Shown: piece by piece, positions 1 to 11,509 of the stretch
How positions within the stretch are numbered: position 1 is the first letter of the stretch
How the letters are laid out: every line of letters begins with the position of its first letter
Virus record (IMG/VR): IMGVR_UViG_648276665_000003
Coordinates: 1-11,509 of that record
Source of the DNA: a virus
Lineage: Duplodnaviria; Heunggongvirae; Uroviricota; Caudoviricetes
Strand: one strand, 5' to 3'
DNA: 11,509 nt
Position numbers and translations under genes: made by a program
The notes under the pieces: generated by a model
The model's database searches: none
What the model was told of the DNA's origin: nothing
What the model saw: the letters and a program-made list of their open reading frames with translations, nothing else

Positions 1-24
1 GGGGGGGGGGGGGGTTTTTTTTAT
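1..24. other. Homopolymer run (G x15 then T x9) at the window edge; probable sequencing or assembly artefact
   Basis: Directly visible: 'GGGGGGGGGGGGGGGTTTTTTTTT' at the very start of the window, unlike any neighbouring sequence. Confidence 0.5.
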
Positions 25-107
25 CAATCACTTACATCAGTTTCCGTAAGAAAACAGTAACTTAAGAAAACCTATAAGGGACTGGAAGGGCTACAAAGTT
101 CTGAGAG

Positions 108-128
108 TGTGGACACTATGTGGACACT
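108..128 (+). repeat. Tandem direct repeat TGTGGACACT (108-117 and 119-128), putative Int arm-type binding sites of the att arm
   Basis: Two perfect 10-bp copies 11 bp apart centre to centre, lying just beyond the 3' end of int. As I recall, P2 Int arm sites are direct repeats resembling TGTGGACA. Confidence 0.4.
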
Positions 129-140
129 CAGAAGGGAAAT

Positions 141-1121
141 TTATAACGTCACTCCGCCTTTTAGAGGATTCAGCGCGACGGCATTTTGCAGGTAGTCAGG
201 CGCAAGGTGCGCATAGGCCATCGTCTGCTGAATGCTCGCATGTCCCAGAATCTGTTGCAGTGCGATTATATTGCCCCCATTCATCATGAAATGGCTTGCG
301 AATGTATGCCGCAGGATGTGGGTTGCCTGATTGGGTGGTATATCTGGCTTCACTCTGCGTAAAATCCCGCAAAACTTCTCATAATCAACTTTGAATAATT
401 TAGCGCTGGCCTCCTCTTTAACTTTTTTCTCCAGTTCCTCAGAAATCGGCACGGTTCGCTTTTTACCGTTTTTGGTTTTCAGGAAGGTAACCCTGCAATT
501 TGTAATCTGTGCTGGTTTTAGCGTGGCAACTTCCGTCCATCTTCCTCCAGTGCTCAGACATAAAAGTGCGACAAGTAAGTCATCACCATCCAAAACATTT
601 AACAGTTTTTCGATTTCTGCTTTTTCCAGGAACGTCATTTCAGGGTTGGCCTCCGCCAGTGGCGGCAGTCCGTGAATTGGGTGTTGCCCGGAAAATTCAT
701 CCAATTGAATTAATTTTGTGAACATGCCGGATAATCGGTACATGTCACGGTTTATCGTTGCGGCACTGATACCATTTCGTAGTCGCATGGAACGATAATC
801 CATCAAAGCTCTTTTGCTCATCCGGCTCACTGGTATATCACCTATGCCGCTGATGGTTTTGAGCAGATGATTAAACTCTTTTGTTCCATGCTCGTGGTTT
901 TGCCCGTGATATTTCCACCAGATGTCCAGCAACTCACTCAAAGTTCTGCGATCTGCTCGCTGACCTGCCCATTCTTTCTGGCTGGCGTAGGCGATTGTGT
1001 ATCGCTCAAATGCTACAGCCTCAGCTTTTCTTTCAAATTTCCTGCGGATGCGTTTTCCGTCGCGACCGCGAGGTCTAATGTCCACTTCATAGCGTCCATC
1101 ATCGAGCTTCTTAATTGACAT
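141..1121 (-). CDS. int: Tyrosine site-specific integrase, P2 Int family
   Basis: C-terminal catalytic region with 'HILRHTFASHF' (HxxR box) and 'TMAYAHL' (catalytic Tyr). The N-terminus 'MSIKKLDDGRYEVDIRP' is P2-Int-like. I take the ATG at 1121 as the start because GAGGG sits 7 nt upstream; the longest ORF begins at 1151 with no Shine-Dalgarno. Confidence 0.9.
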   Translation of the reverse strand: MSIKKLDDGRYEVDIRPRGRDGKRIRRKFERKAEAVAFERYTIAYASQKEWAGQRADRRTLSELLDIWWKYHGQNHEHGTKEFNHLLKTISGIGDIPVSRMSKRALMDYRSMRLRNGISAATINRDMYRLSGMFTKLIQLDEFSGQHPIHGLPPLAEANPEMTFLEKAEIEKLLNVLDGDDLLVALLCLSTGGRWTEVATLKPAQITNCRVTFLKTKNGKKRTVPISEELEKKVKEEASAKLFKVDYEKFCGILRRVKPDIPPNQATHILRHTFASHFMMNGGNIIALQQILGHASIQQTMAYAHLAPDYLQNAVALNPLKGGVTL

Positions 1122-1190
1122 AAGAAAGCCCTCTGACGCTGTATTCACCATCTTGGTAACAAATGGTGAAAATGTAATGTTTATAGAGTG

Positions 1191-1484
1191 TTAACCAGTC
1201 TGTTTTTCGGAGCGGTCTGATTCTGTTGGTTTTTGCCCAATGTGTGCGAGAGCCGGCGCGATCTGACCAGCTTGTGGTGACGTATCACCAGTCATTAACC
1301 AGAGCGTATATTTTTTAAATAAAGGCGTATTTGTGACTCGCATAACGATGCTGAGACCAGGGTCTTTATGCCCACTTTCGTAATTTTTGACTGTTCCTAG
1401 AGCTATCCCGCTAATTTCGCTGAATTTCGCCTGTGTTAAGCCTTCTGCTTTCCTAATCGCTTTCAGTTTTTCGAATGTCTGCAT
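1191..1484 (-). CDS. C: Immunity repressor, P2 C-like (HTH)
   Basis: 97 aa with an N-terminal helix-turn-helix ('LTQAKFSEISGIALGTVKNYESG') and a C-terminal 'YTLWLMTG...QIAPALAH' resembling P2 C. It lies immediately upstream of int on the same strand and is divergent from cox. Confidence 0.8.
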   Translation of the reverse strand: MQTFEKLKAIRKAEGLTQAKFSEISGIALGTVKNYESGHKDPGLSIVMRVTNTPLFKKYTLWLMTGDTSPQAGQIAPALAHIGQKPTESDRSEKQTG

Positions 1485-1513
1485 TTGACAGTAACCTATT
1501 GGTGACTTATATT
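1485..1513 (+). promoter_or_regulatory. Putative early promoter Pe (sigma70-like): -35 TTGACA (1485-1490), 17-bp spacer, -10 TATATT (1508-1513)
   Basis: Consensus -35 and near-consensus -10 with 17-bp spacing, oriented toward cox and abutting the C start codon, as in the P2 immunity switch. Confidence 0.55.
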
Positions 1514-1540
1514 CCCGTCAAAAGGTTGTGTATTGGTGAC
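1497..1540 (+). promoter_or_regulatory. Direct repeat TATTGGTGAC (1497-1506 and 1531-1540); putative C-repressor operator half-sites
   Basis: Two perfect 10-bp direct repeats 34 bp apart. The first lies in the Pe spacer and the second just downstream of the -10. P2 C binds direct repeats flanking Pe, though the spacing here differs from what I recall for P2. Confidence 0.4.
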
Positions 1541-1636
1541 CTTTTGAGTGTGTTAGCCAGTCCCTAGAAAGGACAGGGGCGACCTAGAAGGGGCTGGATC
1601 TAATAAGGGTAACACGAAAGCAAAAAGGGCTAATCA

Positions 1637-1909
1637 ATGGAAGTCAATGACTATGTGATTCAGTACCCGATTGATGCGGTACATACGGTTAAGTTTGCAG
1701 AGTTACTTGGTAAGCCAGAAACGGCTGTAGTCAAGATGGTAAAAGAGAATAAATTGCCAGTTATTGAGCTTCGTGATCCAAGTAAGCCGAACGCTCGTGT
1801 CGGTGAGAAGTGGGTTTTCATTCCAGAGTTTAATCGCGCTGTACGAGAGGCGTTTTATAACCGACCAGTTGAACAGCGTGATGCATGGCTTTTGTGGATG
1901 GGGTTGTGA
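1637..1909 (+). CDS. cox: Cox-like excisionase / early-operon regulator
   Basis: 90 aa, first gene after Pe and divergent from C, the same size class and position as P2 Cox. ATG preceded by AAGGG. Confidence 0.7.
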   Translation: MEVNDYVIQYPIDAVHTVKFAELLGKPETAVVKMVKENKLPVIELRDPSKPNARVGEKWVFIPEFNRAVREAFYNRPVEQRDAWLLWMGL

Positions 1910-1911
1910 TT

Positions 1912-2082
1912 ATGAGTGAACCGCGTTGTATTGCTCAGTTACTGCGTAACGAAAGCCCCAGGGCGATTGACTTCACCATCACCCACGGTAAGGGGCGTAA
2001 GGGAATCATTATCCGCACCAAAAAACAGAGTCCGTTAAAAAAGGCTCTGACCTTTCTGAAAAGCCGGAGGGTCTGGAAATGA
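1912..2082 (+). CDS. Small early-operon protein of unknown function (position of P2 orf78)
   Basis: ATG at 1912 is 3 nt after the cox stop, and its stop overlaps the start of the next gene (ATGA at 2079-2082). The ORF track extends it to 1885, overlapping cox. Confidence 0.5.
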   Translation: MSEPRCIAQLLRNESPRAIDFTITHGKGRKGIIIRTKKQSPLKKALTFLKSRRVWK

Positions 2083-2579
2083 CAGTGATGACGCTCAATC
2101 TCGTCGAAAAACAGCCAGCAGCTATGCGCCGGATAATTGGTAAGCATCTTGCCGTCCCTCGCTGGCAGGATACATGTGATTATTATAATCAGATGATGGA
2201 GCGCGAACGGCTAACAGTTTGCTTTCATGCGCAGTTAAAACAACGTCACGCAACGATGCGTTTTGAAGAAATGAACGACGTCGAACGTGAACGGCTGGTT
2301 TGTGCAATTGATGAATTGCGTGGGGCATTCTCAAAACGCCGTCAGGTTGGCGCAAGTGAGTATGCATATATTAGTTTTTTAACAGTCAGTCAGCGTCGTA
2401 CTTTATTTATGCATGCCGGATTGACTGAAAAAGAATTCAATCAGCCATACTGGCGAATTAATGAAGAGTCATGTTACTGGCGTGATGCTTTATTCCGTGC
2501 ATTACGTGAACTATTCAGTCTGTTTGAGTATGCACCGACAATTCTGACGTCGGTAAAACCAGAGCAATATTTGCATTAA
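2079..2579 (+). CDS. B: Replication protein B-like
   Basis: 166 aa, the same length as P2 gpB as I recall, at the expected position between cox/orf78 and A. Translationally coupled to the upstream ORF. Confidence 0.6.
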   Translation: MTVMTLNLVEKQPAAMRRIIGKHLAVPRWQDTCDYYNQMMERERLTVCFHAQLKQRHATMRFEEMNDVERERLVCAIDELRGAFSKRRQVGASEYAYISFLTVSQRRTLFMHAGLTEKEFNQPYWRINEESCYWRDALFRALRELFSLFEYAPTILTSVKPEQYLH

Positions 2580-2600
2580 ATAATTAACCAGAGTTTTTAA

Positions 2601-2629
2601 CGCACTTAATCGTGCGGGGCTTCTTTTTG
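2601..2629 (+). terminator. Weak hairpin plus T-tract after B (possible attenuator)
   Basis: Stem CGCAC / GTGCG (2601-2605 and 2612-2616) with a 6-nt loop, followed by 'CTTCTTTTT'. The stem is short, so this is weak. Confidence 0.2.
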
Positions 2630-2642
2630 CCTGGAGAAAGTC

Positions 2643-2867
2643 ATGCATACAGTTTCTGAAAATCAGTGCGGTAAATACGCATTACTGCTGCAACAGGCCA
2701 GAACCGAAGCACAGGCCGACGCTGCGACGCGCTTTTCTTCTCATCTTGACGCCATGATTCGCCATATCACAAAGGCGGAGTTATCCCGCGTGGAGATAGT
2801 CGAGCTGCTCAGTCAGGAGTCGGAAAAATTTCACAATATCGGATTGTCTCGCGGGGAGGTGCTTTGA
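2643..2867 (+). CDS. Small early protein of unknown function (position of P2 orf80)
   Basis: 74 aa; ATG preceded by GGAGAAAG. Its stop overlaps the next start. Confidence 0.55.
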
Positions 2868-3166
2868 TGTCCTGTTCTCATTCAGTTGTATTACTGAATA
2901 ACGCCTTAAAAATCGCCGTTATGGAAAATGGTGATTTGTCTCTTATTCAACTTTGTCTTAATAAAGAAAAACGCGACATAACTGAATCTGTTATCGCGAT
3001 TTATCAGAATGAATTAAACCTCCTGTCTGATGTGGTCAATTTACTTGTTAAACGCGCTGTGTTCCACAAGCAAATTTCCTCAGTGGATGAACTGACAAAA
3101 TTAACGACAGAACTCGCCAGTTATTGCGCTGATGTATCCAGGAAACTTAACGATAAAAGGAGCTGA
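2867..3166 (+). CDS. Small early protein of unknown function (position of P2 orf81)
   Basis: ATG at 2867 overlaps the upstream stop (TGATG) and has GGAGG 7 nt upstream. The ORF-track start at 2864 is a TTG. Confidence 0.55.
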   Translation: MSCSHSVVLLNNALKIAVMENGDLSLIQLCLNKEKRDITESVIAIYQNELNLLSDVVNLLVKRAVFHKQISSVDELTKLTTELASYCADVSRKLNDKRS

Positions 3167-3168
3167 TA

Positions 3169-3393
3169 ATGCCGGACAACGTAGATTTTATTCAGGAACA
3201 ACAGGCTGAATTACTGGAGCGCCAGATTAACGCGGCAAGGGTAAAACATTGCGGTGTTTCTTCGCTGGTTTGCGAAGAGTGTGATGCGCCAATACCTGCT
3301 GCCCGTCGTGCGGCTTATCCGTCAGCCACGCGTTGTGTTTCCTGTCAGTCAGTCTTTGAAGCAAAAAACAAACATTACCGGAGAACGGCATGA
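3169..3393 (+). CDS. TraR/DksA-type C4 zinc-finger protein (position of P2 orf82)
   Basis: 74 aa with 'CEECDAPIP...' and 'CVSCQ' (CxxC...CxxC). Strong Shine-Dalgarno AAAGGAG. Confidence 0.65.
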   Translation: MPDNVDFIQEQQAELLERQINAARVKHCGVSSLVCEECDAPIPAARRAAYPSATRCVSCQSVFEAKNKHYRRTA

Positions 3394-3665
3394 GTATTCG
3401 TATTGAAATTGGCGAACGTTATGTCGTTACCAGTGACAGCTTTCAGTTTATTCTCCACGAGAAAAAGAGAGCGGAAAGCGGTAAAAACGCCGGTCAGGAA
3501 TGGCTGTCGGTGGTTGGTTATTACCCGAAATTAAGCCAGCTCGTTTCCGGCCTGATGCATCACGATATTCTGACCGGAAGCGCAAAATCTTTTGCCGATT
3601 TAAACGCGCAGGTTGAGCAACTCAGCAAGCGTTGTTCAGAGGCTTTTGGCTCATATGGACGTTAA
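3390..3665 (+). CDS. Small early protein of unknown function (position of P2 orf83)
   Basis: 91 aa; its ATG overlaps the upstream stop (ATGA), and its 3' end overlaps the start of gene A. Confidence 0.55.
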   Translation: MSIRIEIGERYVVTSDSFQFILHEKKRAESGKNAGQEWLSVVGYYPKLSQLVSGLMHHDILTGSAKSFADLNAQVEQLSKRCSEAFGSYGR

Positions 3666-5952
3666 AGCCTCCGGGCGTTTTGTCCCTCCGTCAGCATTTG
3701 CCGCAGGTACCGGTAAGACGTTTACCGGTGCTTATGCATGGAACGCGCCACGCGAGGCTGTCGGGCGCGAAAGACCCCTTACACGTGACGAGATGCGTCA
3801 GGTGCAAGGTGTTTTATCCACGATTAACCGTCTGCCTTACTTTTTGCGCTCGCTGTTTACTTCACGTTATGACTACATCCGGCGCAATAAAAGCCCGGTG
3901 CACGGGTTTTATTTCCTCACATCCACTTTTCAGCGTCGCTTATGGCCGCGCATTGAGCGCGTGAATCAGCGCCATGAAATGAACACCGACGCGTCGTTGC
4001 TGTTTCTGGCAGAGCGTGACCATTATGCGCGCCTGCCTGGAATGAATGACAAGGAGCTGAAAAAGTTTGCCGCCCGTATCTCATCGCAGCTTTTCATGAT
4101 GTATGAGGAACTCTGCGATGCATGGGTGGATGCGCATGGCGAAAAAGAATCGCTGTTTACGGATGAGGCGCAGGCTCACCTCTATGGTCATGTTGCTGGC
4201 GCTGCACGTGCTTTCAATATTTCCCCTCTCTACTGGAAAAAATACCGTAAAGGACAGATGACCACGAGGCAGGCATATTCTGCCATTGCCCGTCTGTTTA
4301 ACGATGAGTGGTGGACTCATCAGCTTAAAGGCCAGCGTATGCGCTGGCATGAGGCGTTACTGATTGCTGTCGGGGAGGTCAATAAAGACCGTTCTCCTTA
4401 TGCCAGTAAACATGCCATTCGTGATGTGCGTGCACGCCGCCAGGCAAATCTGGAATTTCTTAAATCGTGTGATCTCGAAAACAGGGAAACAGGCGAGCGC
4501 ATCGACCTTATCAGTAAGGTGATGGGCAGTATTTCTAATCCTGAAATTCGCCGGATGGAGCTGATGAACACCATTGCCGGTATTGAGCGTTACGCCGCCG
4601 CAGAGGGTGATGTGGGGATGTTTATCACGCTGACCGCGCCGTCAAAGTATCACCCGACACGTCAGGTTGGAAAAGGCGAAAGTAAAACCGTCCAGCTAAA
4701 TCACGGCTGGAACGATGAGGCATTTAATCCAAAGGATGCGCAGCGTTATCTCTGCCGTATCTGGAGCCTGATGCGCACGGCATTCAAGGATAATGATTTA
4801 CAGGTCTACGGTTTGCGAGTCGTCGAGCCACACCACGACGGAACGCCGCACTGGCATATGATGTTTTTTTGTAATCCACGCCAGCGTAACCAGATTATCG
4901 AAATCATGCGTCGCTATGCGCTCAAAGAGGATGGCGACGAAAGAGGAGCCGCGCGAAACCGTTTTCAGGCAAAACATCTTAATCGGGGCGGTGCTGCGGG
5001 GTATATCGCGAAATACATCTCAAAAAATATCGACGGCTATGCACTGGATGGGCAGCTCGATAACGATACCGGCAGACCGCTGAAAGATACTGCCGCGGCT
5101 GTTACCGCATGGGCGTCAACGTGGCGCATTCCGCAATTTAAAACGGTTGGCCTGCCGACAATGGGGGCTTACCGTGAACTACGCAAATTGCCTCGCGGCG
5201 TCAGCATTGCTGATGAGTTTGACGAGCGCGTCGAGGCTGCACGCGCCGCCGCAGACAGTGGTGATTTTGCGCTGTATATCAGCGCGCAGGGTGGGGCAAA
5301 TGTCCCGCGCGATTGTCAGACTGTCAGGGTCGCCCGTAGTCCGTCGGATGAAGTTAACGAGTACGAGGAAGAAGTCGAGAGAGTGGTCGGCATTTACGCG
5401 CCGCATCTCGGCGCGCGTCATATTCATATCACCAGAACGACGGACTGGCGCATTGTTCCGAAAGTGCCGGTCGTTGAGCCTTTGACTTTAAAAAGCGGCA
5501 TCGCCGCGCCTCGGAGTCCTGTCAATAACTGTGGAAAGCTCACCAGCGGTGATACTTCGTTACCGGCTCCCACGCCTTCTGAGCACGCCGCAGCAGTGCT
5601 TAATCTGGTTGATGACGGTGTTATCGAATGGAATGACCCGGAGGTCGTGAGGGCGCTCAGGGGCGCATTAAAACACGGGCTGAGAACACCAAATCGTCAG
5701 CAGAGAAACGGAAGCCCGTTAAAACAGTATGAAATGGCACCATCGGCCAGACTGACCCGGTCGGAACGAATGCAAATTACCCGTATCCGCGTTGACCTCG
5801 CTCAGAACGGTATCAGGCCGCAGCGATGGGAGCTTGAGGCGCTGGCGCGTGGGGCGACCGTAAATTATGACGGGAAACATTTTACTTATCAGGTCGCTGA
5901 TGAGTGGCCGGGATTCTCAACAGTATTAGAGTCAAACTCAGTGAAGCGTTAA
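3655..5952 (+). CDS. A: Rolling-circle replication initiator (HUH endonuclease), P2 gpA family
   Basis: HUH motif 'TPHWHMMFF' and tandem-tyrosine motif 'YIAKYISK'. I take the ATG at 3655 ('MDVKASGRF...'), giving 765 aa against about 761 for P2 gpA; the ORF-track start at 3613 is a TTG. Confidence 0.9.
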   Translation: MDVKASGRFVPPSAFAAGTGKTFTGAYAWNAPREAVGRERPLTRDEMRQVQGVLSTINRLPYFLRSLFTSRYDYIRRNKSPVHGFYFLTSTFQRRLWPRIERVNQRHEMNTDASLLFLAERDHYARLPGMNDKELKKFAARISSQLFMMYEELCDAWVDAHGEKESLFTDEAQAHLYGHVAGAARAFNISPLYWKKYRKGQMTTRQAYSAIARLFNDEWWTHQLKGQRMRWHEALLIAVGEVNKDRSPYASKHAIRDVRARRQANLEFLKSCDLENRETGERIDLISKVMGSISNPEIRRMELMNTIAGIERYAAAEGDVGMFITLTAPSKYHPTRQVGKGESKTVQLNHGWNDEAFNPKDAQRYLCRIWSLMRTAFKDNDLQVYGLRVVEPHHDGTPHWHMMFFCNPRQRNQIIEIMRRYALKEDGDERGAARNRFQAKHLNRGGAAGYIAKYISKNIDGYALDGQLDNDTGRPLKDTAAAVTAWASTWRIPQFKTVGLPTMGAYRELRKLPRGVSIADEFDERVEAARAAADSGDFALYISAQGGANVPRDCQTVRVARSPSDEVNEYEEEVERVVGIYAPHLGARHIHITRTTDWRIVPKVPVVEPLTLKSGIAAPRSPVNNCGKLTSGDTSLPAPTPSEHAAAVLNLVDDGVIEWNDPEVVRALRGALKHGLRTPNRQQRNGSPLKQYEMAPSARLTRSERMQITRIRVDLAQNGIRPQRWELEALARGATVNYDGKHFTYQVADEWPGFSTVLESNSVKR

Positions 5953-6035
5953 CTCAATCAATAGGAGTTTATAAGTTAGGCCTCGAGATTTTGTAGAAAG
6001 GGATGTATACTGAGCATCGTATAGATTTGGAGTGA

Positions 6036-7061
6036 ATGATGACTGTAAAGGTGATAGACCTTTTTTGTGGTGCTGGCGGATTAACTCATGGTTTACAGCT
6101 TGCGGGGCTTGATGTCGTTGCAGGCATAGACCTTGAGGGGGAATGTCGGTTTCCCTATGAAAGAAACAATAAATCTAAGTTTATTGAGCAAGATATCGCT
6201 AAAGTAACAAAAGAGGAACTGCTGAGGCTTTATGGTGATGCGTCTGTAAAAGTATTGGCAGGATGCGCACCTTGCCAACCTTTTTCAAAATATACTCAAG
6301 GAAAAGATAAGGCTGATGATAAAAAATGGCCTCTTCTTTATGAGTTCGAACGTTTAATTCGCGAAGTATCTCCAGAAATCGTAACAATGGAGAACGTTCC
6401 TGATGTAACTAAACATAAAGTTTATAATGATTTTTATAATTCATTGTTAAAGTTGGGCTATTATGTTTGGGCGTCGAAGGTTGATTGTGTCGAATATGGA
6501 ATCCCACAAAACCGTTCCCGTCATGTATTGTTGGCTTCAAAATTGGGGGCGATTGAGTTAGTAAAACGTGACGATGTTATTTTGAAAACAGTTAGAGATG
6601 CAATAGGAAATCTTCCTCCGTTAGAAGATGGCCAAACAGATCCAAATGATATATTACATAGAGCCAGTAAATTAAATCCGATTAATAAAAAAAGAATTAT
6701 ACACTCTGTTCCTGGTGGTACATGGAAGGACTGGCCGAAGGAGCTGATTGCTGCTTGTCATATGAAATCTAGCGGTAAAGGATATGCTAGTGTATATGGG
6801 CGCATGTCTTGGGATAAGCCAAGTCCAACAATTACAACTCTTTGTTATGGTTTCGGAAATGGACGTTTTGGACATCCAGAACAGCATAGAGCGATTTCTC
6901 TTAGAGAGGCTGCTTTATTGCAAACTTTTCCGATGGATTATATCTTTGTAGAAGACAAAGACAAGTTTGTTATAAGAAGTATTGGGAAAATGATAGGTAA
7001 TGCTGTTCCTGTGGAACTAGGAAAAGCAATTGGGCAATCAATCAAGAACCATTTAGAATGA
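6036..7061 (+). CDS. DNA (cytosine-5)-methyltransferase
   Basis: Canonical C5-MTase motifs in order: I 'DLFCGAGG', IV 'GCAPCQPFS' (catalytic PC), VI 'TMENVPD', VIII 'QNRSRHVL', X-like 'GNAVPV'. Shine-Dalgarno GGAG 6 nt upstream. The gene is AT-rich (about 35% GC in sampled stretches) against roughly 50% in the flanking phage genes. Confidence 0.9.
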   Translation: MMTVKVIDLFCGAGGLTHGLQLAGLDVVAGIDLEGECRFPYERNNKSKFIEQDIAKVTKEELLRLYGDASVKVLAGCAPCQPFSKYTQGKDKADDKKWPLLYEFERLIREVSPEIVTMENVPDVTKHKVYNDFYNSLLKLGYYVWASKVDCVEYGIPQNRSRHVLLASKLGAIELVKRDDVILKTVRDAIGNLPPLEDGQTDPNDILHRASKLNPINKKRIIHSVPGGTWKDWPKELIAACHMKSSGKGYASVYGRMSWDKPSPTITTLCYGFGNGRFGHPEQHRAISLREAALLQTFPMDYIFVEDKDKFVIRSIGKMIGNAVPVELGKAIGQSIKNHLE

Positions 7062-7067
7062 TAAAAT

Positions 7068-7084
7068 GGCCTGCTTTGCAGGCC
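7068..7084. terminator. Bidirectional rho-independent terminator between the convergent MTase gene and DUF262 operon
   Basis: Perfect 7-bp stem GGCCTGC / GCAGGCC with a TTT loop, flanked by A/T-rich runs on both sides, between the stops at 7061 (+) and 7091 (-). Confidence 0.6.
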
Positions 7085-7090
7085 TTATTA

Positions 7091-7771
7091 CTATTGTTCT
7101 AAATATTCATTATTATTTATATAGTGCTCTATATTATTCGCGATTGCATCAAGATAGGCGATTACTTCTAATGAAATATTCTCTAAGTCCTGATATGAAA
7201 CATTTTTTCCAATCTCAGCAAATGATACATTGCCATGAGATAAATCATTACGATGTTGTTTGACAGTGGCTAATTTTTCACCATGTTTAGTGTGAGTGTA
7301 ATCAGAATATGTTGAAAAACCATATATTTTCGATTTTTCTTTGATTTCCTCTCTATCAATATTTCCTGAGAATATTTTCTTTTTGTTGAAAGTGCCATAA
7401 GATATACCGCAAGATATACCTTTAGTAAGACGGTTAACTAAACTTTCAATATTTACAGATTCATTTTTTAATCTTTTTAATATTTCTGACCTGATATTTT
7501 TCCTGAGTTTGTCAAATTCTACGTTTCTATCATAAATAGTCTCATGAATAAGGCAGATAGCTTCTCTCATTGTTGATTCAATGAGGTTATATAATAGAAT
7601 ATATACTGCCCCCTTTAGAGTTTTTCGTGATTGAGCAGTAATGGAGAACTTATGTTCTTTATCATCAGATGATATCAGTTCTGCACCGGCATACTCAATA
7701 AATTTCAAAAGATCTAAATAGGCCAAGATCTCTCCTGACCTTTCGTCAAAATCCTCACGAAAACGATCCAT
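7091..7771 (-). CDS. Hypothetical protein with C-terminal Rx4H motif (HEPN-like, putative RNase effector); second gene of the DUF262 operon
   Basis: 226 aa with 'QHRNDLSHG' (R-x4-H) about 45 residues from the C-terminus, where HEPN catalytic motifs sit. The start codon is 1 nt after the DUF262 stop, with Shine-Dalgarno GAGGAT. Very AT-rich. The HEPN assignment is from the motif only. Confidence 0.6.
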   Translation of the reverse strand: MDRFREDFDERSGEILAYLDLLKFIEYAGAELISSDDKEHKFSITAQSRKTLKGAVYILLYNLIESTMREAICLIHETIYDRNVEFDKLRKNIRSEILKRLKNESVNIESLVNRLTKGISCGISYGTFNKKKIFSGNIDREEIKEKSKIYGFSTYSDYTHTKHGEKLATVKQHRNDLSHGNVSFAEIGKNVSYQDLENISLEVIAYLDAIANNIEHYINNNEYLEQ

Positions 7772-7772
7772 G

Positions 7773-8915
7773 TTAATCCTCTAATAATTTATCCCGAACA
7801 TATTCAATTCGTTCAATTACCTTCACGCGACTATTAGCTCCGTCTGAAGTGGTCAATCGTTTGAATTCTTCTGAGCTTAGCCAATCCAAGTTCTTGGGAA
7901 CAAGGTCAGGGATTTCACGTAATGCAAGTGCTGCGCCAACAGCGAGAGATTCGAATCTAACTCGAGGTGTAGATTTTGCAGTAATAGTTTTCTTGAATCC
8001 TGCTGGGAAATAGTTATCAACAAAAGATAGAACATTAGCAAACTCTTGTTTCATTGAGTTTTGTTTAGTTTCGTCTATATCTCGATTTTCTAACATATAG
8101 TCATTTAGAAAATCCCGTACGGAATGATCAAAGTTCTTGTACTTATCTAAGTAGGCAAAAAATCTTAATGTAAATTCTAACCGTTCATCTCGTTTTTCTT
8201 TAGTCTGAGATAAAGGTGCTAATTCTTTAAATTTAGGTATTGTTGAGCATGGCTTAATAACCTGTGTATATAAATTTGTTGAACCAAGTTCTGATCCTTT
8301 ACGGACTTCCATATCTTTCAATATATCGCTGCCAGAGTTAATACGTTCAAAAAGATCTCTACGGGTTTCTTCATTGCATTTAGAACTCAATTCTATAACG
8401 CGGACAGGAATTCTCATGAAACGACGTTGACGTGATAATGGTAAATCTTGGAATTTGAAACCATTAAGGGCGTCTAAAGATTTCAGATCTTGTAAAACTA
8501 ATTCATTTTGGATAAAAGCGTGTATAGTCCTAACTCGCTGTGAGCCATCAACAATCTCAATTCGCCCATCTAAATCGGGATCTTCGGAGAGAACATCTGC
8601 TGTAAATATATATGGTATAGGAAAACCCAAAATCAAAGACTCTATCAATCTTGATTGTCTTTTTTCACTCCAAACAAAATCCCTTTGATAATCAGGAACA
8701 AAGAGTTCGTTAGTATCATCCTCTAATCCGCTATGATACTTATTAACTAATAACTCAACGGTAAATTCTTTGGTCTCAAAATCCACATCCTTTTGCTCAG
8801 CACGAATTTGCTCTTCAGCGTTTTGCTTTATCACCTCTAGCTGAGCAAGCAACTCTGCTCTTTTCTTGGCATTATCTTCATTTTCTAGTTGAGATTTTAA
8901 ATCAATAATGTCCAT
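7773..8915 (-). CDS. DUF262 (ParB/GmrS-like NTP-binding) domain protein; first gene of a two-gene operon
   Basis: DUF262 signature blocks 'VPDYQRDFVW', 'LIESLILGFPIP' and 'DGSQRVRTI' (DGQQR-type). The likely start is the ATG at 8915 with AGGGAG 6 nt upstream; the ORF track extends to a TTG at 8933. There is no recognisable fused His-Me/HNH (DUF1524) domain. Confidence 0.8.
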   Translation of the reverse strand: MDIIDLKSQLENEDNAKKRAELLAQLEVIKQNAEEQIRAEQKDVDFETKEFTVELLVNKYHSGLEDDTNELFVPDYQRDFVWSEKRQSRLIESLILGFPIPYIFTADVLSEDPDLDGRIEIVDGSQRVRTIHAFIQNELVLQDLKSLDALNGFKFQDLPLSRQRRFMRIPVRVIELSSKCNEETRRDLFERINSGSDILKDMEVRKGSELGSTNLYTQVIKPCSTIPKFKELAPLSQTKEKRDERLEFTLRFFAYLDKYKNFDHSVRDFLNDYMLENRDIDETKQNSMKQEFANVLSFVDNYFPAGFKKTITAKSTPRVRFESLAVGAALALREIPDLVPKNLDWLSSEEFKRLTTSDGANSRVKVIERIEYVRDKLLED

Positions 8916-9100
8916 GTCTAGCTCCCTTAACAAGTGTTAAAAATTGAAGCGGATAGCATACCGCATAGATCATGAAAAATGCCATCATGTGCATGGATTT
9001 GCATGCGTCAGAAGTCGCTTTTATTGTTAGTTATCACTAGCGATGGTGTGCTCTTGGAGTGTTCATGCAACTGCATTAAAAATGCCCCATGAAGCGGGCG

Positions 9101-9119
9101 GGCGAGGCGGGGAAAGCAC
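9101..9119. other. cos site: 19-nt cohesive-end sequence of P2/186/P4-type phages
   Basis: Exact match to 'GGCGAGGCGGGGAAAGCAC', which I recall as the P2/P4 cohesive end. It lies between the end of the early region and gene Q, as in P2. Confidence 0.75.
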
Positions 9120-9261
9120 TGCGCGCTGGCGGTGGTGCTGATTTTATTTTTTCAGCGTCTGAGCGCGTCTTGATGGCGTTTAGATTGTGCGCCGGGGCGT
9201 TGGTGTGTCTGCGGGGTGTTTTGTGCGGTGGTGAGCGTGTGAGGGCGTGATGACGGGGTGT

Positions 9262-9283
9262 AAAAAAGCCGCCCGCAGGCGGC
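9262..9283 (-). terminator. Rho-independent terminator downstream of Q
   Basis: On the minus strand: stem GCCGCC / GGCGGC with a 4-nt loop followed by TTTTTT (plus strand 'AAAAAAGCCGCCCGCAGGCGGC'), immediately 3' of the Q stop. Confidence 0.6.
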
Positions 9284-9288
9284 GATGT

Positions 9289-10323
9289 TCAGCCGTTGTC
9301 AGTGTCCAGTGAGTAGTTTTTAAAGCGGATGACCTCCTGGCCGAGCCAGCCGTTTATTTCCCGAATCCTGTCCTGTAACGGGATAAGCTCATTGCGGACA
9401 AAGACCTTTGCCACTTTCTCAATATCACCCAGCGACCCGACGTTCTCCGGCTTGCCCCCCATCAACTGAAAGGGGATGCGGTGCGCGTCCAGCAGGTCAG
9501 CGGCGCTGGCTTTTTTGATATTAAAAAAATCGTCCTTCGTTGCCACTTCACTGAGCGGGATAATTTTAATGCCGTCGGCTTTCCCCTGCGGGGCATAGAG
9601 AAACAGATTTTTAAAGTTATTGCGGCCTTTTGACTTAACCATGTTTTCGCGAAGCATTTCGATATCGTTGCGGTCCTGCACGGCATCGGTGACGTACATG
9701 ATGTATCCGGCATGTGCGCCGTTTTCGTAATACTTGCGGCGGAACAGCGTGGCCGACTCATTCAGCCAGGCAGAGTTAAGGGCGCTGAGATATTCCGGCA
9801 GGCCGTACAGCTCCTGATTAATATCAGGCTCCAGCAGGTGAAACACGGAGCCGGGCGCGAAGGCTGTCGGCTCGTTGAAGGACGGCACCCACCAGTAAAC
9901 ATCCTCCTCCACGCCACGACGGGTATATTTGGCCGGTGAGGTTTCCAGTCTGATGACCTTACCGGTGGTGCTGTAACGCTTTTCCAGAAACGCATTACCG
10001 AACACCAGAAAATCCAGCACAAAGCGGCTGAAATCCTGCTGGGAAAGCCACGGATGCGGGATAAATGTCGAGGCCAGAATATTGCGTTTGACGTAAATCG
10101 GGGAGCTGTGATGCACGGCAGCACGCAGGCTTTTTGCCAGACCGGTAAAGCTGACCGGTGGCTCATACCATCTGCCGTTACTGATGCACTCAACGTAATC
10201 CAGAATGTCACGGCGGTCGAGTACCGGCACCGGCTCACCAAAGGTGAATGCCTCCATTTTCGGGGCGCTGGCGGTCATTTTTTTTGCCGCAGGTTGCGGT
10301 GTTTTCCCTTTTTTCTTGCTCAT
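9289..10323 (-). CDS. Q: Portal protein, P2 gpQ-like
   Basis: 344 aa, the same as P2 gpQ as I recall. It is the first gene after cos on the complementary strand, and its ATG overlaps the stop of the upstream terminase fragment (TGATG). Confidence 0.8.
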   Translation of the reverse strand: MSKKKGKTPQPAAKKMTASAPKMEAFTFGEPVPVLDRRDILDYVECISNGRWYEPPVSFTGLAKSLRAAVHHSSPIYVKRNILASTFIPHPWLSQQDFSRFVLDFLVFGNAFLEKRYSTTGKVIRLETSPAKYTRRGVEEDVYWWVPSFNEPTAFAPGSVFHLLEPDINQELYGLPEYLSALNSAWLNESATLFRRKYYENGAHAGYIMYVTDAVQDRNDIEMLRENMVKSKGRNNFKNLFLYAPQGKADGIKIIPLSEVATKDDFFNIKKASAADLLDAHRIPFQLMGGKPENVGSLGDIEKVAKVFVRNELIPLQDRIREINGWLGQEVIRFKNYSLDTDNG

Positions 10324-10592
10324 CAGTAAAACTCCAGAATGGTGGATGTCAGCGGGGTGCTGATACCGGCGGTGAGTGGCTCATTTAACAGGGCGTGCAT
10401 GGTCGCCCAGGCGAGGTCGGCGTGGCTGGCTTCCTCGCTGCGGCTGGCCTCATAGGTGGCGCTGCGTCCGCTGCTGGTCATGGTCTTGCGGATAGCCATA
10501 AACGAGCTGGTGATGTCGGTGGCGCTGACGTCATATTCCAGACAGCCACGGCGGATGACGTCTTTTGCCTTGAGCACCATTGCGGTTTTCAT
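10323..10592 (-). pseudogene. P: C-terminal fragment of the terminase ATPase subunit (P2 gpP-like); the 5' portion is missing
   Basis: The reading frame directly upstream of Q with stop/start overlap extends only about 90 codons before running into antisense FI sequence and a stop at 10716-10718; gpP should be about 590 aa. Identity rests on position. Confidence 0.55.
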
Positions 10593-10621
10593 TTCCGGCG
10601 TGTAACCGTACCTGCTCCGAT

Positions 10622-10969
10622 GACCCGCTGTTCCTCTTTGAAAACTACACCCGCACCGCGCAGGTGCTGGCCGACACGATGGCTGAGGCGCACATGTGGG
10701 CGGTGGACAAGCCCATCACCGCAACGCTGATTCGCGACATCGTTGACGGCATCAATGCCAAATTCCGTGAGCTGAAAACAAACGGCTATATCGTGGATGC
10801 GACCTGCTGGTTCAGCGAAGAATCCAACGATGCGGAAACCCTCAAGGCCGGAAAACTGTATATCGACTACGACTATACCCCGGTGCCTCCTCTTGAAAAC
10901 CTGACCCTGCGCCAGCGTATTACCGATAAATACCTGGCAAATCTGGTCACCTCGGTTAACAGCAATTAA
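10622..10969 (+). pseudogene. FI: C-terminal fragment of the tail sheath protein (P2 gpFI-like); the 5' portion is missing
   Basis: Open frame ending '[11 protein letters not shown]' immediately upstream of FII, with no plausible start or Shine-Dalgarno; about 115 codons against about 396 for intact gpFI. The fragment start is approximate. Confidence 0.55.
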
Positions 10970-10981
10970 GGAGCCTGACCG

Positions 10982-11500
10982 ATGGCAATGCCGCGCAAAC
11001 TCAAGTTAATGAACGTCTTTCTGAACGGCTACAGCTATCAGGGCGTCGCGAAGTCCGTCACGCTGCCAAAACTGACCCGTAAGCTCGAAAACTATCGCGG
11101 TGCGGGGATGAACGGCAGCGCACCGGTAGACCTCGGCCTTGATGACGATGCGCTGTCAATGGAGTGGTCGCTCGGGGGCTTCCCGGATTCGGTTATCTGG
11201 GAGCTTTACGCCGCAACCGGTGTGGATGCTGTGCCGATTCGTTTTGCAGGCTCTTACCAGCGTGACGATACCGGCGAAACGGTGGCCGTCGAAGTGGTCA
11301 TGCGTGGACGTCAGAAAGAAATCGACACCGGCGAGGGTAAACAGGGAGAAGACACTGAGTCGAAAATCTCCGTGGTCTGCACCTATTTCCGGCTGACGAT
11401 GGACGGTAAGGAGCTGGTCGAAATCGACACCATCAACATGATTGAGAAGGTGAACGGCGTCGACCGGCTGGAGCAACACCGCCGCAATATCGGCCTGTGA
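10982..11500 (+). CDS. FII: Tail tube protein, P2 gpFII-like
   Basis: 172 aa, the same as P2 gpFII as I recall, with strong Shine-Dalgarno TAAGGAG. It follows the FI fragment in the FI-FII order. Confidence 0.75.
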   Translation: MAMPRKLKLMNVFLNGYSYQGVAKSVTLPKLTRKLENYRGAGMNGSAPVDLGLDDDALSMEWSLGGFPDSVIWELYAATGVDAVPIRFAGSYQRDDTGETVAVEVVMRGRQKEIDTGEGKQGEDTESKISVVCTYFRLTMDGKELVEIDTINMIEKVNGVDRLEQHRRNIGL

Positions 11501-11509
11501 TTTTCATCC

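Follow-up and report, generated by a model that had tools for sequence, protein, structure and literature searches.

Conserved linkage of a C5 cytosine methyltransferase with a DUF262/HEPN gene pair in prophages and bacterial chromosomes, and its candidate role as a self-marking module

Described systems with similar components

The association of genes for a HEPN protein of the MAE_28990 family, a ParB-like (DUF262) protein and a DNA methylase was tabulated in 2013 (Anantharaman et al., Biol Direct 8:15, Table 1; PMC3710099). The 11,509 nt window analysed here (positions 1-11,509 of the IMG/VR virus record IMGVR_UViG_648276665_000003, Caudoviricetes) encodes these three families side by side within 2.9 kb, and its HEPN protein has an intact Rx4-6H motif and matches the Pfam model that bears the name of the MAE_28990 family (PF18737), whereas the 2013 entry is one line of a comparative-genomics table, without phage or P2-hotspot context or an analysis of the methylase lineage and of clades that lack the methylase. 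Our subject is the C5 cytosine methylase gene of this trio, which the initial annotation of the window had called solitary; the term does not apply, as the gene is the third conserved member of a cassette whose association was already on record. The cassette consists of the following features:

6036-7061, + strand: C5 cytosine DNA methyltransferase, 341 amino acids (PF00145); proposed modification (self-marking) module
7068-7084, both strands: G+C-rich hairpin GGCCTGC-TTT-GCAGGCC, with 7 pairs, 6 of them G-C, between the convergent stops
7091-7771, - strand: HEPN protein of the MAE_28990 family, 226 amino acids (PF18737, E=2.8e-29; PF18735, E=8.5e-9); predicted RNase effector
7773-8915, - strand: DUF262/GmrSD_N protein (ParB-like NTPase), 380 amino acids from the ATG at 8915 (PF03235, E=6.4e-26); predicted DNA or modification sensor

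The two-gene system PD-T4-2 from Escherichia coli ECOR65 (Vassallo et al., 2022) shares with the window the order DUF262->HEPN, and both HEPN proteins are near the RiboL-PSP/MAE_28990 group, but its genes span 1.54 kb as opposed to 1.83 kb in the window; PD-T4-2 was cloned as a 1.8 kb fragment with no methylase (PMC9519451). The window pair could not be classified as PD-T4-2, because its DUF262 protein matched the A model of PADLOC (5.3e-35) but its HEPN protein did not match the B model at E<=0.01. The DUF262 protein scored better against NsnA (2e-54, its best defence model). NsnA is the "ParB-DUF262 + ParBDB" sensor of the Menshen system NsnABC (PMC12065111), and the window protein shares its architecture of a DUF262 domain plus a helical "ParBDB" part. 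Assignment of the cassette to Menshen was also rejected, since the island that carries it contains neither an ORF (open reading frame) for an NsnB ABC ATPase nor NsnC, and HEPN directly follows DUF262.

Methylases sometimes adjoin Menshen operons, whose authors speculate on the sensing of non-modified DNA. Likewise, SspABCD-SspE and DndBCDE-DndI couple a DUF262-family reader to a host-encoded DNA modification module, although there the mark is backbone sulfur and not 5-methylcytosine (m5C), and the role of a separate HEPN RNase is taken by a fused DUF1524 nickase or nuclease that attacks DNA. The coupling of a DUF262 protein to a methylase, considered unusual in the initial annotation, is therefore not without precedent, given the self phosphorothioate marks that SspE and DndI recognise and the methylases observed beside Menshen operons. 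GmrSD and BrxU differ in that they attack modified DNA by themselves, while the DUF262 protein of the window is coupled to a methylase; the cassette was discarded as a type IV-like enzyme of the GmrSD/BrxU/SspE kind because it lacks the DUF1524 His-Me (HNH-like) domain.

The methylase itself points to DISARM, as its best PADLOC model is DrmMII (4e-91), followed by MTase_II (1e-88), and the non-autoimmune deletion of the DISARM methylase fits the tolerated losses described below; however, the window contains no DrmA, B, C, D or E, and the partner is DUF262+HEPN. Finally, PrrC-EcoprrI, a type Ic restriction-modification (R-M) system, also ties a HEPN RNase genetically to a DNA modification system, but PrrC has a fused ABC ATPase and is restrained by HsdMSR, whereas in the window there is just one C5 methylase, and the DUF262 NTPase is a protein of its own. 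The WonAB/GrwAB paper and the preprint on Hma-embedded systems were set aside as literature on the trio, because they deal with other DUF262 or with non-DUF262 systems.

Linkage of the methylase with the DUF262/HEPN pair

The nine complete E. coli genomes with any part of the cassette hold all three genes (9/9), present as one block; one of these copies is 89% identical to that of the window and occupies the same P2 slot. Outside E. coli, each scan comprised the best 80 loci, with mechanical ORF calling in the retrieved sequences. One scan, centred on HEPN and covering 185,579 species with a single genome each, gave 80 loci in which DUF262 was always immediately upstream of HEPN, and in 36 of them an orthologous C5 methylase gene adjoined the pair (phmmer E values from 1e-115 to 1e-132), with methylase identities of 51-57% outside Enterobacterales. 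These 36 trio loci are from Gammaproteobacteria, Cyanobacteria, Bacteroidales and Acidobacteria, and include chromosomal non-phage settings; the methylase gene mostly runs towards HEPN, and the two reading frames touch or overlap at their ends. Metagenome bins among the loci can be mis-assigned, as with L044, which is labelled Acetobacteraceae and nests among cyanobacteria.

In a tree of DUF262+HEPN (neighbour-joining on p-distance-derived distances, as with all trees here), the methylase is present in every lineage except for one monophyletic cyanobacterial clade and one recent loss (L012 and L013). Pairwise methylase distances correlate with those of DUF262 (r=0.96) and of HEPN (r=0.88) in 35 loci; both values are inflated by shared phylogeny, but they do show the three genes moving together. 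The trees have no bootstrap support.

IMG/VR viral contigs yielded 37 loci, with the C5 methylase gene next door in all 35 that are not cut by a contig end, even at HEPN identities of 28-36%, and every sequenced phage with this HEPN family has the trio (10/10: nine Moraxella phages and Peduovirus P24B2). We found three gene orders, namely convergent, methylase>DUF262>HEPN and DUF262>HEPN>methylase, and the genes of the same-strand operons are separated by a few nt or overlap. One of these operons, from IMG/VR (L205:2795-5705; methylase>DUF262>HEPN with 2-nt gaps), contains a C5 methylase only 29% identical to that of the window, while those of all other trios are at least 51% identical, an apparent non-orthologous replacement in the same slot. 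The trio methylases are exclusively C5 cytosine enzymes, never N6 or N4 enzymes. In one Salmonella locus (L169), an insertion sequence separates HEPN from the methylase gene, which is still there.

The trio is located in the P2 hotspot in Salmonella and in the nin region of lambdoid prophages in Klebsiella, with an identical internal geometry. In five Klebsiella pneumoniae loci (L162-L166) the cassette (6001-8886) is found between the O/P or DnaC-like replication genes and the NinG/RusA/Q antiterminator region, and its DUF262 protein is 85% identical to that of the window; its presence in P2-like and lambdoid prophages indicates that the cassette passes from one prophage family to another, unrelated one. 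The index of the collection lists this Klebsiella variant of DUF262 in 487 blocks and a Salmonella variant in 227. P24B2 contains a diverged trio in the same P2-like hotspot; compared to the window, its methylase is 73% identical, DUF262 45% and HEPN 29%, and these uneven identities indicate recombination of modules.

In different phyla and in unrelated mobile elements, the three genes have stayed together through inheritance, transfer and rearrangement. An adjacency that outlasts rearrangement, transfer from element to element and replacement of the methylase is a classic mark of functional coupling and not of hitch-hiking, and we consider it highly probable that the methylase belongs to the cassette as an integral component, functionally coupled to the others. 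The functional link to the pair, one of two options left by the initial annotation, is therefore strongly supported by comparative genomics, and its proviso that homologues of methylase and operon might never be linked elsewhere fails, because they are.

The other option was an independent anti-restriction gene. An orphan phage methylase could guard P2 DNA from host restriction, or alter host expression, and merely be a neighbour of an unrelated abortive infection (Abi) pair. This would agree with P2 hotspots stacking unrelated systems, such as the trio and a reverse transcriptase in one Salmonella prophage, with the genuine orphan Dam-type methylase that P2-like Salmonella prophages hold elsewhere in the genome, with the relatives of the pair that work or persist without a methylase, and with the approximately 61 of 80 close methylase relatives from metagenomes that are not beside DUF262/HEPN. 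Nevertheless, the trio occurs, with co-divergence, in chromosomal non-phage contexts of four phyla, in three gene orders that include tight same-strand operons (3-nt gaps or overlaps), moves as a unit between unrelated prophage types and retains the methylase in 35/35 viral loci, while the methylases without the pair adjoin other restriction-like modules instead of standing alone. Independent cargo is thus improbable. An anti-restriction effect may be a side benefit, but it cannot explain the trio in non-phage chromosomes of four phyla; similarly, the methylase was rejected as an orphan phage methyltransferase because DUF262+HEPN accompany it in 9/9 E. coli genomes, 35/35 viral loci and 10/10 phages, and because its relatives have other partners.

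The window is part of a P2-like prophage, and the trio is cargo between gene A and the portal gene, the known defence hotspot. The island and its surroundings are:

5953-8990, no strand: low-GC cargo island, 30-39% GC vs 50-56% in the flanks
141-1151, - strand: integrase of the P2-like prophage
3613-5952, + strand: P2 replication gene A protein, left flank, not part of the cassette (PF05840, E=3e-124)
9289-10323, - strand: P2-type portal protein, right flank, not part of the cassette (PF04860; annotated as portal in the homologous prophage L001)

Rousset et al. (2022) and Vassallo et al. (2022) described this P2 slot, with the replication endonuclease gene on one side and the portal gene on the other, as a hotspot where tin, old and numerous further defence systems are found (PMC9519451). 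In the window, a G+C-rich non-coding segment (8976-9288) leads from the cassette to the portal gene; this cos-proximal end of the query is matched, with 90-93% identity, in 2,156 of 5,426 complete E. coli genomes, of which only 9 have the cargo. The same segment holds ...GGCGAGGCGGGGAAAGCAC..., which we take to be the P2 cohesive-end (cos) sequence, and there is a strong terminator-like hairpin after the portal gene (9268-9283, - strand).

Other accessory genes were seen in homologous prophages. Directly upstream of gene A, prophage L001 (E. coli GN04592, with the 89%-identical cassette) has a gene of the PAPS-reductase family (1950-2957) that is not in the window prophage. A Salmonella P2-like prophage (L170) has a reverse transcriptase (RVT_1, 585 amino acids; 3793-5550) stacked beside the trio in the hotspot, and several of the Salmonella prophages (L167-L171:11966-12827) carry upstream of gene A a Dam-type (MethyltransfD12) methylase, also not found in the window, which looks like a separate orphan-type phage methylase.

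The methylase lineage and the products of the pair

The product of 6036-7061 is a complete C5 cytosine DNA methyltransferase, predicted to form m5C, and in this respect the initial annotation was accurate. PF00145 covers it end to end (E=4.4e-58, 197.7 bits vs a cut-off of 22, profile positions 2-323 of 324), and TIGR00675 scores 128.7 bits, over its cut-off of 100.65. Motifs I (DLFCGAGG, amino acids 8-15), IV (GCAPCQPFS, with the catalytic Cys80), VI (ENV, 119-121), VIII (QNRSR, 158-162), IX (LREAALLQTFP) and X (GNAVPV) showed no variation in an alignment of 16 sequences. The start may be the second ATG, at 6039, because the homologues open with MTVKV or MAVKV.

The designation as Dcm-class holds at the superfamily level but not as regards Dcm itself: identity to E. 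coli K-12 Dcm is 25% over amino acids 3-169 only, that is, the N-terminal half, and the target recognition domain (TRD) is unlike that of Dcm, with no significant alignment, so the enzyme was rejected as a Dcm orthologue. Among solved structures, M.HaeIII and M.HhaI align in the catalytic core only, and an alignment of the C-terminal part with DNMT1 is uninformative. No target motif could be assigned from the solved structures and the comparison with Dcm, as the TRD has no usable relative there; the motif MTCGAK of the DrmMII methylase from Serratia DISARM (bioRxiv 10.1101/2021.12.28.474362) is only a lead for the window enzyme.

A metagenome scan with the methylase alignment showed that about 19 of the 80 closest relatives of the enzyme (52-88% identity) adjoin DUF262/HEPN, while some 61 do not. 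These others adjoin a SNF2 helicase of approximately 1,046 amino acids, which matches the PADLOC models for DISARM DrmA and DrmD end to end (E=0), or a GHKL ATPase of 650-720 amino acids that matches a REBASE-derived REase_II model (2e-93); a gene for a Vsr mismatch endonuclease is often present too. The methylases of these DISARM- and GHKL-linked loci (L084-L161; e.g., L104:1041-5250 and L085:4498-8069) are 52-60% identical to that of the window. In the methylase tree the DISARM-linked sequences form one clade, whereas pair-linked and GHKL-linked sequences are interleaved, which suggests repeated swapping of partners. The TRD (amino acids 186-284) is the best-conserved region of the methylase in all three contexts, with 62-63% identity, suggesting that the lineage keeps one shared specificity. 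The lineage thus looks like a portable modification (self-marking) module that has been joined to different restriction-like effector modules.

The convergent arrangement noted in the initial annotation was confirmed. A gap of 29 nt separates the stop codon of the methylase gene (7061) from that of HEPN (7091); the stretch given for the methylase in the initial annotation, which ends at 7084, takes in the hairpin of this gap. The hairpin, which scored as terminator-like on both strands in spite of weak T-runs, is likely a bidirectional terminator. It is kept in the copies from E. coli, Klebsiella, Salmonella and Tatumella, where substitutions within the inner stem seem, on visual inspection, to compensate each other; the cyanobacterial copies lack it, and there the coding regions of methylase and HEPN overlap tail to tail. 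An antisense ORF within HEPN (7066-7263, + strand, 65 amino acids) was treated as a chance ORF.

The HEPN protein belongs to PHROG 3846, and its RNDLSHG motif (R174 and H179; Rx4H) is unchanged in 21 homologues, the catalytic motif being kept in methylase-plus and methylase-less clades alike. None of the PADLOC and NCBIfam models matched it; RefSeq, which already names all three cassette genes, designates its gene as "MAE_28990/MAE_18760 family HEPN-like nuclease". The stop of the DUF262 gene is separated from the HEPN start by 1 nt, and so the two form one operon placed for translational coupling. The mechanically called DUF262 ORF reaches the TTG at 8933 (386 amino acids), but nearly all of the listed homologues have about 380 amino acids, so that the ATG at 8915 is the likelier start. 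Its NTPase-domain motifs QR, DGSQR and FxxxN are present, and an AlphaFold2 model (mean pLDDT score of 81.6) starts with a helix, which is followed by a ParB-like domain and a C-terminal half made up of helices only. The best structural matches are BrxU, SspE and DndI, which likewise have the NTPase motifs and a helical domain.

A DUF1524 nuclease domain was not among the Pfam matches of the DUF262 protein, and its model showed no nuclease fold. The description of the pair as nuclease-like thus needs correction, since HEPN, a predicted RNase, is the sole predicted nuclease of the cassette. In line with the statement that the methylase has no obvious cognate endonuclease, no classical restriction endonuclease or recognisable restriction endonuclease fold was found in the island by ORF, Pfam, PADLOC and structure comparisons, although a DNase activity of the ParB-like domain is conceivable.

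These observations bear on the possibility of a true R-M system with a back-up, in which the ParB-like domain of DUF262 would cleave unmethylated DNA and HEPN would act as a second-line suicide RNase if restriction is blocked. Anantharaman et al. used the label "ParB nuclease" and proposed a multi-pronged, PrrC-like defence for R-M-linked HEPN proteins (PMC3710099), and the DUF262 protein weakly matches the REBASE-derived REase_II model of PADLOC (3e-5). Yet, a review of GmrSD, BrxU and SspE assigns an NTPase or sensor role to DUF262 and cleavage to DUF1524 (PMC10952713), which is absent here; the model shows no nuclease fold, and methylase loss is tolerated in nature, something that an active type II-like endonuclease would not usually allow. 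We therefore regard this scheme as quite unlikely.

A proposed role for the methylation mark

We think it slightly more likely than not that the methylase serves a mobile defence cassette of three genes as its modification module, with m5C as the self mark, DUF262 as the reader and the HEPN RNase as the executor. The methylase would write m5C at one fixed motif on the DNA of the lysogen and on the prophage's own DNA, and the DUF262 NTPase would read the methylation state. Methylated motifs would most likely mean "off" or self, and unmethylated motifs on incoming DNA would lead to NTP-dependent activation of the sensor. This would free the HEPN RNase to cut tRNA, rRNA or mRNA, with translation arrest or transcript loss and abortion of the infection. 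As in class 1 DISARM, where methylation is an off switch and deletion of the methylase is not autoimmune (bioRxiv 10.1101/2021.12.28.474362), methylation would probably modulate the system, and viability would not strictly depend on it. This specific read-out logic is more tentative, a little short of an even chance. We favour the off/self polarity because the same methylase lineage is the off switch in DISARM, because a DISARM-like non-autoimmune behaviour would explain the natural losses of the methylase, and because the Menshen authors raise the same idea for methylases beside NsnA-type sensors.

The opposite polarity is a serious rival, if an unlikely one. The m5C of host DNA could be a positive cofactor, as in Ssp, with DUF262 arming HEPN after binding to methylated self sites, and the methylase would then be needed for defence but not for self-protection. 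The DUF262 domain of SspE reads self modification, and the best structural matches of the window protein, BrxU, SspE and DndI, all read modified DNA (PMC10952713); additionally, the trio recruits only C5 cytosine methylases, which fits a reader of C5-modified cytosine, and loss of the methylase is tolerated, as expected if it is not an antidote. On the other hand, PD-T4-2 and the cyanobacterial clade keep their catalytic motifs without a methylase, so that host or phage modification would have to substitute for it, and the same methylase lineage is an off switch in class 1 DISARM.

Several observations weigh against the methylase as a self-marking module. Approximately 40 cyanobacterial loci (L023-L081; e.g., L040:5895-7660) contain DUF262+HEPN with no adjacent DNA methylase. 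They form the monophyletic clade mentioned above, with the motifs DYQR, DGxQR, FERIN and RNDLAHG intact, and are wedged among housekeeping genes (acnB, clpB, secA, cobN and carB). A Pfam search of 122 flanking ORFs found no recurrent alternative DNA methylase (N6, N4 or other) near these pairs; L077 has unrelated C5 methylases 2-4 kb away. In several Microcoleus loci beside clpB (L062, L067, L068, L071 and L079), DUF262 is shortened to about 180 amino acids. Additionally, L012 and L013 lost the methylase and retain an intact pair, with a methylase remnant detectable in L013, and the methylase of phage P24B2 (L172:3558-4605, NC_049387.1) is frameshifted at the PGGTW codons, giving ORFs 3558-4262 and 4195-4605, while its DUF262 and HEPN are intact; this frameshift is either a sequencing error or a tolerated natural knockout of the methylase. 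Experimentally, PD-T4-2 cloned without a methylase protects against T4 in K-12 as well as in its native ECOR65 (PMC9519451). Together, the methylase-less clade and PD-T4-2 indicate that the pair family is not universally dependent on a methylase, nor intrinsically lethal or useless alone. Thus, the pair operon may well prove stable without the methylase, because methylase-less relatives exist and look functional. Furthermore, these results are compatible with either polarity of the methylation signal, and in the searchable literature we found only the 2013 table entry and no experimental study of the trio.

Even so, a classical R-M reading and pure hitch-hiking are both less likely than sensing of m5C. 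In its broadest form, our proposal is that the cassette could be an epigenetically gated Abi system, combining R-M logic with a nuclease-less DUF262 reader and an RNase effector, in which the self mark, with the one specificity of its lineage, would be interchangeable among DISARM, GHKL-ATPase and DUF262/HEPN modules; we put this forward as a possibility, and a rather doubtful one.

The trio association (2013), the RefSeq gene names, the P2 hotspot and the defence by PD-T4-2 are already known. Within the searchable literature, four points appear to be new, namely the figures for the linkage, the cyanobacterial clade without a methylase, the transfer of the trio from one prophage type to another, and a methylase lineage with a conserved TRD that is also found in DISARM and GHKL modules.

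If the proposed logic holds, this three-gene, 2.9-kb cassette from E. coli would be a tractable model for the reading of modification by DUF262/ParB-like NTPases, and for the relay of a self/non-self signal at the DNA level to a suicide effector at the RNA level. The results also show that at least three different defence architectures draw their modification module from one C5 methylase lineage. Annotators should check the conserved neighbours of an "orphan" methylase in a prophage hotspot before calling it an anti-restriction gene, and the defence-finder models of PD-T4-2-like systems currently ignore the methylase. Prophages of this kind would change the m5C methylome and the phage sensitivity of their hosts, and the cassette family is widespread in Klebsiella and Salmonella.

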